Program-made: the position numbers and the translations under genes | Notes under the pieces: generated by a model | What the model was told of the DNA's origin: nothing | Database searches by the model: none | Seen by the model: only the letters and a program-made list of their open reading frames with translations | Shown here: in pieces, positions 11,646 to 14,839 of the stretch | How positions within the stretch are numbered: the stretch's first letter is position 1 | Layout of the letters: each line of letters starts with the position of its first letter | Assembly: GCA_964016885.1 (NCBI GenBank) | Contig: OZ024760.1 | Coordinates: forward strand, 26,040,001-26,104,000 | Direction of reading: 5' to 3' | DNA: 64,000 nt | DNA from: Eledone cirrhosa | Taxonomy: Eukaryota

Positions 11646-11719
11646 AACTGGTCTACGAATTCGGTAATATATATATACAATATCTTAATAAATGGAAACT
11701 ATATTTATAAAACCATATT

Positions 11720-11785
11720 TATTTTATTATATATATTTCAAGGGCGACCAAGGTAAATTATGGTGCGCTTTCATCAGATAAAATA
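11720..11785 (-). ncRNA. Type I hammerhead ribozyme, family A
   Basis: UAUUUUAU-CUGAUGA-stem II-GAAA-UAUAUA-UA^AUAAAAUA. Confidence 0.75.
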
Positions 11786-12194
11786 CAAATTTGTTTTATA
11801 AATAAATATTGACATACCTGGAAAAAAGACAACGGTTGAAATTAGTGAATTTCAACCGTTAAGGTTGACTTTTTTCCGGGTCGCCCTTGAAATATATATA
11901 ATAAAATAAGTATGGTTTTATAAATATAGTTTCCATTTATTAATATATTGTGTATTTACTCCACTAATTTGTTGAGTGCTTTATATCAGTTATAAAAATT
12001 TTTAAGCTTGTTGAATCCCAACAAATTAAATATAACCTCTGCATATATATATATATATATATATGCAAAAGTTTTATTTAAAATTGTTGGGTTACAACGA
12101 GTAAATATTTTATAACTGATATAAAGCACTCAACAAGTTTTGGAGTAGATATACGATATTAAACAAATGGAAACTATATTTATAAAACCATATT

Positions 12195-12260
12195 TATTTC
12201 ATTATACATATTTCAGGGATACCATATTAAAAATATGGCATGCCTTCTTCAGATAAAATA
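12195..12260 (-). ncRNA. Type I hammerhead ribozyme, family A
   Basis: UAUUUUAU-CUGAAGA-AGGCAUGCCAUAUU..AAUAUGGUAUCCCU-GAAA-UAUGUA-UA^AUGAAAUA. Confidence 0.82.
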
Positions 12261-12408
12261 CAATATATAAGCAGTTTTATAAATAAATTTGACGTACCAT
12301 AAAAATATTGATCAACTTCCATTTAAAAAAGTTGGTTTGGTAGTAAATGGAAGTTGATCAATATTTTTATGGTACGTCAAATTTATTTATAAAACTGCTT
12401 ATATATTG

Positions 12409-12474
12409 TATTTTATCTGAAGAAGGCATGCCATATTTTTAATATGGTATCCCTGAAATATGTATAATGAAATA
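12409..12474 (+). ncRNA. Type I hammerhead ribozyme, family A
   Basis: Mirror of 12195-12260; CTGAAGA at 12417 and GAAA at 12455. Confidence 0.82.
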
Positions 12475-12601
12475 AATATGGTTTTATAAATATAGTTTCC
12501 ATTTGTTTAATATTGTATATCTACTCCAAAACTTGTTGAGTGCTTTATATCAGTTATAAAATATTGACTCGTTGTAACCCAACAATTTTAAATAAAACTT
12601 T

Positions 12602-12637
<36 letters not shown>

Positions 12638-12828
12638 TTCAAAATATTAACAAAATAGATATTCTTGTGATCAATTATATTTTATTATACATATTGATCA
12701 CAAGAATATCTATTTTGTTAATATTTTGAATTAATATTAATAACTCTGTAAAACCTTTTTCTATTGAGTGCTTCCAATCTATTGTAAAACTCATGCTTTG
12801 ATGTATTCATTGAACCTTGTTTAACTTT

Positions 12829-12863
<35 letters not shown>

Positions 12864-12902
12864 GATATTAACAAATGGAAACTATATTTATAAAACCATA
12901 TT

Positions 12903-12967
12903 TATTTCATTATACATATTTCAAGGACACCAAGTTAAATTATGGTGTGCTTTCATCAGATAAAATA
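12903..12967 (-). ncRNA. Type I hammerhead ribozyme, family A
   Basis: CUGAUGA-AAGCACACCA..UGGUGUCCUU-GAAA-UAUGUA-UA^; stem I UAUUUUAU/AUGAAAUA. Confidence 0.82.
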
Positions 12968-13104
12968 TAATATAGAGCAGTTTTATAAATAAATATTGAC
13001 ATACCCTTAAAGAATGCGACCATTACTGTTGGAAGCTACCGGATAGTAATGGTTGCATTCTTTAAGGGTATGTCAATATTTATTTATAAAACTGCTCTAT
13101 ATTA

Positions 13105-13169
13105 TATTTTATCTGATGAAAGCACACCATAATTTAACTTGGTGTCCTTGAAATATGTATAATGAAATA
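13105..13169 (+). ncRNA. Type I hammerhead ribozyme, family A
   Basis: CTGATGA at 13113, GAAA at 13150, predicted cleavage after 13161. Confidence 0.82.
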
Positions 13170-13296
13170 AATATGGTTTTATAAATATAGTTTCCATTTG
13201 TTAATATCGTATTTTTACTCCAATTATTTGTTGAGTGCTTTATATCAGTTATAAAAATATTTGCTTGTTGTATCCCAACAATTTAAATAGAACTTT

Positions 13297-13339
<43 letters not shown>

Positions 13340-13821
13340 AGGGTGTGTAACGTGAAGTTACTGTAGATTCACCCAGGTGAGCACTCGATGTTTAAGTTCT
13401 CATCAGTTGCAAGGTGTAGAGCTAGACAAAGTGTAATATTATAATAATAATTAAATTATTGTGTAAAGTGCTCAGGTGCACTACAACTCATCAAAGGTGC
13501 ATGTATAGTACATAGAATAATATACAAATGTCAGGGGGATGATTTGTTATGCCTTTATTACATTTATTGGTTGGTGATGCGCGTTTCGCTATTGATCAGC
13601 TCAAAGGTCGATCGGTATCGATCTGGCACGACTCTGGAATCAAAAGCCCATCGGACCTCTCCTGTGTTAATGACCATTATATATATATATATAACTTTGA
13701 TAGGTTTTGGCCCATATTGGTTCAAGCCATGTCTAACTTAATAGCACCACCTGGAAATATATATATATATATATATATATACGATATTAACAAATGGAAA
13801 CTATATTTATAAAACCATATC

Positions 13822-13886
13822 TATTTTATTATACATATTTCAAGGATACCATGTTAAATTATGGTATGCTTTCATCAGACAAAATA
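13822..13886 (-). ncRNA. Type I hammerhead ribozyme, family A
   Basis: Intact core; stem I UAUUUUGU/AUAAAAUA. Confidence 0.82.
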
Positions 13887-13940
13887 CAATATATACCAGT
13901 TTTATAAATAAACATTGATGTTCCCTTTCAACGTATATAT

Positions 13941-14005
13941 TGTTTTGTCTGATGAAAGCATACCATAATTTAACATGGTATCCTTGAAATATGTATAATA
14001 AAATA
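13941..14005 (+). ncRNA. Type I hammerhead ribozyme, family A
   Basis: CTGATGA at 13949; mirror of 13822-13886. Confidence 0.82.
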
Positions 14006-14839
14006 GATATGGTTTTATAAATATAGTTTCCATTTGTTAATATCGTATATTTACTCCAAATACTTGTCGAGTGCTTTATATCAGTTATAAAAATATTTGC
14101 TTGTTGTATCCCAACAATTTAAATAGAACTTTTGCATATATATATATATATATATATATCGTTTCTGAATTTGTTTAGCAAGATTCTTTATCTGAAAACG
14201 TGTGTTGAAACCGATATTGTTATACTTTGGGAGGGTCATGTTGCCAATAAGAAACACATGCACCAGTTGCTTTCACTAAAATTAATTATAAATTAAATTT
14301 AAGAATCTATAAATTTGTGGTTGGTTGGTTGGTTCCATAACCGGACGGTTGTTCATATAGTGTCAAAGTTCTTTCGTCACAAATTCTGTGACCTCTTCAG
14401 TGACTGAAGATTCTTTTCTTTGTTTTTGTGCCTCTCCTTTGTTCTGTCCTACGCCATTTTGTTTTTGTGTGTATTGTGTGCTTAGTTTGCGCATGTGTTA
14501 CATCCGGGTGTCTGTGTGTGTTTATATTTGTTCATTTATTTGTTTATTTACATGTTACTGGTTGGTTGTTTGTTCTATGTGCGTGTGTGTTTTCATTTTG
14601 TCCTTAATTGTAAGTTGTGATGTTGCTATTCCATTCATGTTTTCTATTTAATTTTGGTTGGAGTTCATTTATGTTTATTGCCTCTGTGATTTGTCTAACA
14701 TTGCGTCTTTTCTGTGTGTAGATTATATTTTTATTTCTATGTTCTCTAATTTGCCCTTATGTTCTATTTTTTTTTTTTTTTTTTATTCTTTTTATTTTAG
14801 CATGTTGGTGGAGTATTGATGATATATATATATATATAT

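Follow-up and report, generated by a model that had tools for sequence, protein, structure and literature searches.

How can a palindrome with two fixed outer ends and a shifting centre come to lie, without any element body, in a (TA)n microsatellite? The question is posed by a 64,000-nucleotide (nt) stretch of the Eledone cirrhosa genome (assembly GCA_964016885.1, contig OZ024760.1, forward-strand positions 26,040,001 to 26,104,000; hereafter the window), which displays seven head-to-head inverted cassettes of one sequence family, family A, each with (TA)n on both sides and most with predicted hammerhead ribozymes (HHRs). We posit, at a probability of roughly 0.55, that each cassette consists of two 5′-truncated, head-to-head copies of a ~280-nt HHR-bearing end, placed in (TA)n likely by the reverse transcriptase (RT)-endonuclease of a Penelope-like element (PLE) that acted in trans and primed twice on one RNA. 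The origin of PLE insertions that are both inverted and tailed has been called unresolved (PMC11167929; likewise the available part of PMC8557442). The body-less cassettes are abundant and short enough to be read whole, and the competing explanations of their origin differ on which arm owns the central loop.

Anatomy of the family A cassettes

The seven cassettes, named here by their first positions (Table 1), measure ~300–540 bases, and their left and right arms are 91–99% identical, with an overlap of 75–260 nt between paired arms. Inverted alignment of the six that were scored whole gave 145–512, as against shuffle maxima of 24–29; 11675 was excluded from this scoring because an internal TA run split its inverted alignment. 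A search of the window with an arm profile recovered exactly 15 family A arms, along with two sister-family arms and weak internal echoes. All 15 outer ends lie at (TA)n, in agreement with a prior sequence-only reading of this DNA that had placed the seven cassettes at these sites, and comparison of the arms bears out its count of six cassettes with one short and one long arm and one (12064) with two long arms. Its picture of four consecutive cassettes survives as a stacked cluster, with five cassettes taking up 1,907 of the 2,463 bases from 11675 to 14137, but not as an uninterrupted row: 12064 and 12862 have a cassette of the sister family A′ (12635–12831), absent from that reading's list, between them, and 12862 and 13781 stand ~440 nt apart, with unrelated sequence in the gap. 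Across a 64-column core, the two arms of a cassette differ by 0–2 nt (mean 0.7, n = 7), compared with a mean of 3.5 across cassettes (n = 98), and the partner arm comes from the same subfamily in all seven, with five sequence variants present in the window. No direct (head-to-tail) tandem was found among the 15 arms in the window, nor any head-to-tail array of family A units each with an HHR.

Every one of the 15 outer ends falls at one of two recurring positions, as had been claimed; these are 89–90 nt apart (measured in five of the six short/long cassettes), which replaces the earlier estimate of ~85 nt. The end motifs that had been quoted are fixed in position but not in letters, aacttttgca being exact in six of nine long arms and aatatcg in five of six short arms. 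Each of three long arms examined contains 13–15 TA/AT runs of at least 4 nt, and the constancy of the end positions despite these internal runs argues that microhomology by itself does not determine where an arm ends. The same ends bear on the possibility of a TA-targeting miniature inverted-repeat transposable element (MITE) or foldback DNA transposon, which long inverted repeats, TA flanks, AT-richness and high abundance would all suit; indeed, such cassettes are likely to be misfiled as MITEs or unknown repeats. A transposase requires like ends, however, and the ends are unlike by 89–90 nt in six of the seven cassettes, in which matching terminal inverted repeats were not found. The centres cut at variable points, the occurrence of solo arms and an HHR fold conserved by covariation (see below) further render a DNA transposon highly improbable.

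Part of the region 11310–14800 is present in 16 of the 19 listed public sequencing runs, and more than half of it in three, the fullest of which may come from the source of the window itself. Four runs were aligned to one 274-nt arm (13028–13301, a reference that stops at the long end), yielding 6,705 matching contigs in run X1 (organism A), 65 in X5 (organism B, a second species) and 30,521 and 33,334 raw reads in two more organism A samples of one restriction-site-associated DNA (RAD) study; summed contig depths were not taken as copy numbers. In all four runs, loose ends behind 13202–13212 run into (TA)n (5,221 reads in one raw sample and 6,211 in the other at the main entry), and the short end is thus general. 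Among the 15 joints listed of 28, 13 switch strand, at 13 distinct coordinate pairs; 10 of these 13 recur at the same coordinates in both raw samples, though some may be RAD ligation chimeras, and joint 13049/13139 is found in X1 contigs as well as in X18 reads. Joints with their shallow side in the tail (e.g., 13066/13229) fit twin priming and snap-back alike and were left uncounted. This recurrence in two raw-read samples, and of one joint in another study's contigs, makes an assembly or library fold-back artefact hardly credible, even if no listed read or contig spans these particular cassettes; moreover, the sequence beyond (TA)n is not mirrored, the arms are unequal and carry differences, and a repeat splits one arm of the A′ cassette 26367. 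A pile-up of molecule ends at 13131 and 13283 was dismissed as non-biological, both positions lying at AATT, probably the RAD enzyme site. A metagenome scan with a 27-nt family motif returned 0 matches.

Predicted hammerhead ribozymes in the arms

On the aligned sequences, the motif in the arms is a predicted type I minimal HHR backed by covariation. It combines an 8-bp stem I, a CUGANGA core, a long stem II, GAAA and an AUA triplet with a 2-bp stem III, whose self-complementary loop goes with a self-dimer predicted at −3.6 kcal/mol. A descriptor of this form has 18 matches in the window and 0–1 per shuffle (10 block shuffles). In stem II, seven of nine pairs show double-sided change across nine aligned sequences and 99.4% of cells are paired, a level reached in 0 of 500 shuffles, a count that is not to be read as a probability given that the sequences are related by descent. 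The lone HHR folds modestly better than its shuffles (z −1.6). No Rfam HHR model matches at the gathering level, and Rfam matches at E up to 10 comprise only sub-threshold microRNA-like and other hairpins, which we dismiss as chance. The base pair at the foot of stem II is A-U in seven of the nine aligned sequences (all of family A) and G-C or G-U in the two from A′. Family A′ (19439–19730, 12635–12831 and 26367–26942) features a homologous HHR with G at the stem II base, together with a tail of 96–98 nt that has one small hairpin in common with family A.

Outward-pointing HHRs on both arms had been proposed to supply a ribozyme whichever strand is transcribed. The outward orientation holds, and both arms carry an HHR in five of the seven cassettes (12064, 12862, 13781, 49757 and 49051), but 11675 has one on its left arm only and 48268 on neither. 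The proposed function finds no support in folding: HHR stems I and II have a probability of 0.000 in six of six folded whole-cassette RNAs, and one or both HHRs are missing from two of the cassettes in any case. Since the HHRs point outward, the antisense arm would be transcribed ahead of the ribozyme on either strand, and the whole-cassette RNA is predicted to bury the HHR inside its hairpin. In these models, the paired HHRs look like a by-product of insertion rather than a two-way ribozyme device. If transcribed, the cassettes would give 75–260 bp of double-stranded RNA.

Arm depth and the route of insertion

The centre junction was held to differ in every copy, but the centres are not entirely random: 12862 and 49051 share one 5′ turn point, at which the consensus of 32 X1 contigs also folds back. 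Three central loops extend the short arm, those of 13781, 49757 and 12862 (the last assigned through the upstream sequence that those 32 contigs agree on). The short arm of both 11675 and 49051 reaches a 5′ turn and is followed by a 20–35-nt inverted self-copy and a jump into a shallower long arm. Among the family A short/long cassettes, the short arm is the deeper one in five of six, the sixth (48268) being a tie; in the sister families it is deeper in 12635 and 54031, whereas in 10257 the long arm is deeper by ~5 nt. The short arm is thus deeper in seven of eight aligned cases (two-sided p ~0.07, by hand), or in five of five within family A alone with the tie left out (p 0.0625). Three further cassettes judged by eye (18298, 20632 and 46515) agree, and adding them gives 10 of 11 (p 0.012). 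The count leaves out 48590, 38815, 60168 and 10479, which are unassignable, and treats 48268, 26367 and 59629 as ties. We take this lopsided arm depth as a modest, testable lead on the mechanism of PLE insertion.

The self-inversion first proposed for these cassettes amounts to a simple cDNA snap-back: a cDNA primed at the long site would fold back and serve as its own template, the resulting arm would be cleaved at the short site, and subsequent deletions would remodel the centre. The arms are indeed inverted, but this account is too simple, the loop being on the short arm in five of the six short/long family A cassettes. It predicts a loop on the long arm and is contradicted, unless later deletions favour the long arm, by 12862, 13781, 49757, 12635 and 54031, where the loop is on the short arm without any sign of an inner self-copy. 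Where the loop extends the short arm, fold-back copying of that arm cannot have produced the tailed one, and as a fold-back copy is never longer than its template, cassettes of this kind need a second priming event with access to the tail. Simple snap-back, which is documented for R2 (PMC11371274, in its available text), does suit the long/long 12064 and 10257, as well as 26367 and 59629, whose loops are close to zero in length; as the general route it is distinctly doubtful.

We favour two priming events on one RNA. In this mechanism, both strands of a (TA)n tract would be nicked, and one 3′ end would prime at an inner site (the short end) while the other primes at an outer site 90 nt downstream (the long end). 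The inner-primed cDNA would lead toward the RNA 5′ end; the outer-primed cDNA would trail, would have to displace the leader and would stop earlier, which we propose is why the tail-less arm is deeper. The two cDNA 3′ ends would be joined through microhomology, sometimes after brief snap-back synthesis, and full snap-back of a single cDNA would produce the rarer long/long (12064) and short/short (33544) forms. Since (TA)n would be left on both sides of each insertion, later insertions could stack. The HHR would travel as a passenger on the parent RNA, and in read-through transcripts it is predicted to be sequestered; in vitro, HHR cleavage is dispensable for insertion (PMC11167929). The same work describes a PLE protein, predicted to form a dimer, that nicks and extends both strands and uses two start sites bounding the tail, but reports no strand difference in start site, so that it is we who infer the pairing of a short with a long end. 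Twin priming with microhomology joining has been proposed for L1 (available part of PMC10760644), and cDNA snap-back has been seen at R2 5′ junctions (available part of PMC11371274).

A predicted dimer that extends both strands (PMC11167929) could instead copy two separate RNAs, one per nick, with the depth asymmetry arising by chance. Long/long and short/short forms (12064 and 33544) do occur, and the asymmetry is not significant on the aligned cases alone, but short/long cassettes make up six of the seven (one-sided p 0.0625 for an expected half) and none of the seven mixes subfamilies despite the five variants in the window, which together lead us to regard this version as unlikely. Self-priming by an antisense PLE RNA, put forward for palindromic head-to-head Penelope junctions (PMC3846280, in the part available), would have the RNA 3′ end fold back and the RT copy out to the tail, after which the RNA-derived arm would be cut back to the short site, with DNA then taking its place. 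Such a route would also yield a one-arm loop and identical arms, and a recurrent 5′ fold-back point is present; yet it requires a fixed-end antisense transcript and unexplained trimming, accounts poorly for the inverted self-copy and jump in 11675 and 49051, and departs from the in vitro system, in which the template is sense RNA and the RT can start at either end of the tail (PMC11167929). We rate it an outside contender.

Several points weigh against twofold priming on one RNA. A PLE open reading frame (ORF) was sought in the window through the ORF list, by motif scanning and with Pfam for 13 selected frames, and none was found; we therefore infer PLE membership. The depth rule rests on few cases, with 10257 running the opposite way, and the long-arm gap in 11675 and 49051 could be a later deletion. 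The tail is 90 nt long, compared with a published 30–40 bp, and no difference in start site was seen between the strands in vitro (PMC11167929), which by itself predicts no pairing of short and long ends. Later gene conversion could be an alternative source of the similarity between arms, and the long end is documented from the window. As to the tail itself, its hairpins show compensatory change in 0 of 27 pairs within family A and in 3 of 12 once A′ is included, and whole arms fold no better than shuffles (z −0.97); with covariation so weak and folding so shuffle-like, tail structure is suggestive only.

A bolder proposal, which we offer tentatively and with the odds somewhat against it, is that these are ~280-nt non-autonomous PLE passengers born as palindromes: a leading and a trailing RT would each prime on the same RNA, at one of two sites defined by structure, with the tail on the shallower arm, and many unrelated families of this genome would arise likewise, stacking in (TA)n and seeding long, near-perfect RNA hairpins in large numbers near genes. 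Were it true, each insertion would record its own mechanism in the placement of the tail on the shallower arm.

Other cassettes, genomic setting and known systems

A second HHR-like (TA)n family, family E (10257–10449, 33544–33655, 54031–54187 and 48957–49032), has the same design as family A and comprises two long/short cassettes (tails of ~75 nt), one short/short cassette (33544) and one solo arm. Seven further (TA)n-bounded inverted cassettes have other sequences (18298–18542, 20632–20828, 38815–39258, 46515–46661, 48590–48933, 59629–60076 and 60168–60587); most combine one flush arm with one extended by 39–155 nt (39 nt in the 48590 family), and some display HHR-like cores. Repeats have inserted into existing cassettes: one arm of 26367 holds a repeat resembling a short interspersed element (SINE; 26656–26835), and the centre of the inverted pair 10465–11251 holds a retroelement-like fragment (~10650–11070). 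A 250-nt duplicate (95% identical) between TA runs (49565–49732 and 50855–51017) bears an HHR variant on the minus strand and has no inverted partner. Two related, non-palindromic (TA)n-bounded elements (11310–11666 and 50219–50801) end near the TA boundary with CUGAUGA after GAAA, an order that is not type I by the HHR descriptor.

The cluster lies downstream of ACP6, as first read, at ~1.6–4.1 kb beyond the probable stop; an exon within 7659–7988 matches human ACP6 residues 295–346 (E 1.3e-10). On the minus strand, 39691–40623 and 58279–58581 hold DUF885 pieces below the Pfam cut-off that suggest a spliced gene, in an intron of which the 48–50 kb cassettes would fall, and 20933–22743 is a broken element resembling a long interspersed element, with RT and AP-endonuclease pieces, and is not a PLE. 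Inverted pairs of 243 nt (57029–57694) and 159 nt (61731–62507) also occur, the former with a tRNA-like match (57455–57512) and probably a tRNA-derived SINE. Long homogeneous minisatellite arrays span 44220–45870, 54611–57010, 31381–32323 and 401–1403 (periods 59, 35, 162 and 72, respectively).

Table 1. Cassettes, predicted ribozymes and neighbouring features in the window.
Feature	Position	Strand	Remarks
Family A cassette, HHR on short left arm	11675–12044		Deep run, turn, short inverted self-copy, jump to long right arm, which begins within stem II
Family A cassette, long/long	12064–12606		261-nt arms, 99% identical; loop 18 nt
Family A cassette, short left/long right	12862–13301		Loop of 17 nt, native to the sequence upstream of the short arm; arms joined over 3 nt of microhomology
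Tail of 12862, short end (13209) to long end (~13300)	13210–13299	+	90 nt; two small predicted hairpins common to family A′
Family A cassette, short left/long right	13781–14137		36-nt loop extends the short arm
Family A cassette, short left/long right	48268–48565		No complete HHR; turn on stem II hairpin; centre is a 27-nt unit ×3
Family A cassette, long left/short right	49051–49459		Short arm to 5′ turn point, then an inverted self-copy of ~20 nt; ~60 nt missing from long arm; collapsed stem II in left HHR
Family A cassette, long left/short right	49757–50160		10-nt loop extends the short arm
Solo family A long arm with HHR (60974–61022)	60909–61162	+	SINE-like fragment before, (TA)n after
Family A′ cassette, short left/long right	12635–12831		98-nt tail; short arm deeper
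Family A′ cassette, long left/short right	26367–26942		~180-nt interspersed repeat splits right arm; short AT-rich duplication around repeat
Predicted type I HHR, core to cleavage site	11728–11777	−	Descriptor match
Predicted type I HHR	12203–12252	−	Descriptor match
Predicted type I HHR	12417–12466	+	Descriptor match
Predicted type I HHR	12911–12959	−	Descriptor match
Predicted type I HHR, stem II closed by A-U, covarying	13113–13161	+	Descriptor match
Predicted type I HHRs of cassette 13781	13878–13830; 13949–13997	−; +	Descriptor match
Predicted type I HHRs of cassette 49757	49945–49897; 50060–50108	−; +	Descriptor match
Probable last coding exon of ACP6-like gene	9848–10015	+	Weak match, ACP6 residues 351–388 (E 1.5)

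The PLE-type ends, (TA)n targeting and optional tail that the sequence-only reading recognized all match published features of PLEs, in which an inverted 5′-truncated copy, a 30–40-bp tail at one end and a (TA)n bias are standard (PMC8557442 and PMC8969392, in their available sections). With endonuclease-bearing (EN+) PLEs (Penelope/Poseidon, Neptune, Hydra and Naiad; available sections of PMC8557442 and PMC3846280), the cassettes share the inverted, 5′-truncated head-to-head copy (in seven of seven), the optional one-ended tail (in six of seven), junction palindromes, a (TA)n bias (reported for Naiad and Hydra), no discernible target duplication and an HHR near the end (as in Hydra and other canonical clades, but not Naiad). 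They differ in having no body or ORF between the arms, in a tail that is mostly on the more truncated arm and is 89–90 nt (family A) or 96–98 nt (A′) rather than 30–40 bp long, and in showing no direct tandem of the pseudo-long-terminal-repeat (pLTR) type in the window.

Schistosoma Cercyon PLEs (PMC4209133, in the text available) likewise feature a type I minimal HHR with a long helix II and a palindromic helix III, and their opposite-strand HHR pairs, ~100–700 bp apart, have the spacing of the cassettes, with ends and junctions not described in that text. The family A HHR resembles the dimer-dependent minimal HHRs of PLEs treated in the same source, save that their conserved G10.1-C11.1 is replaced by A-U. 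PAc, the Anolis Poseidon element (PMC11167929), matches in its two RT start sites bounding the tail, its AT-rich target and the nicking and extension of both strands, but has a 30–40 bp tail and start sites in the 5′ part of the ORF, whereas no ORF start is seen in the family A arms; its inverted products are left unexplained in the main text. Non-LTR retrozymes (bioRxiv 10.64898/2026.07.22.740005, available part) are also short non-coding animal repeats with type I HHRs, proposed to derive from PLE pLTRs. They are defined by a head-to-tail tandem arrangement in which one strand bears two HHRs, unlike the head-to-head cassettes with one HHR per strand. In L1 inversions the two segments derive from distinct regions of the RNA and the position of the second site varies, whereas the family A arms overlap by 75–260 nt and both sites are fixed. 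Common to the cassettes and L1 twin priming are a second priming at the target and microhomology joining of two cDNAs (PMC10760644, in part), and short inverted self-copies at the junction are shared with R2 snap-back products (PMC11371274, in part). An octopus repeat annotation lists active Penelope families and does not use the word 'hammerhead' in its available portion (PMC13282606). The literature covered holds no account of the present families, of a 90-nt tail, of multi-family body-less cassettes or of the depth rule; subscription papers and repeat databases lay outside its scope, and the supplements of PMC8557442 and PMC4209133 may list such families. The overall design is, then, largely the known insertion signature of PLEs, here in a minimal and abundant form.

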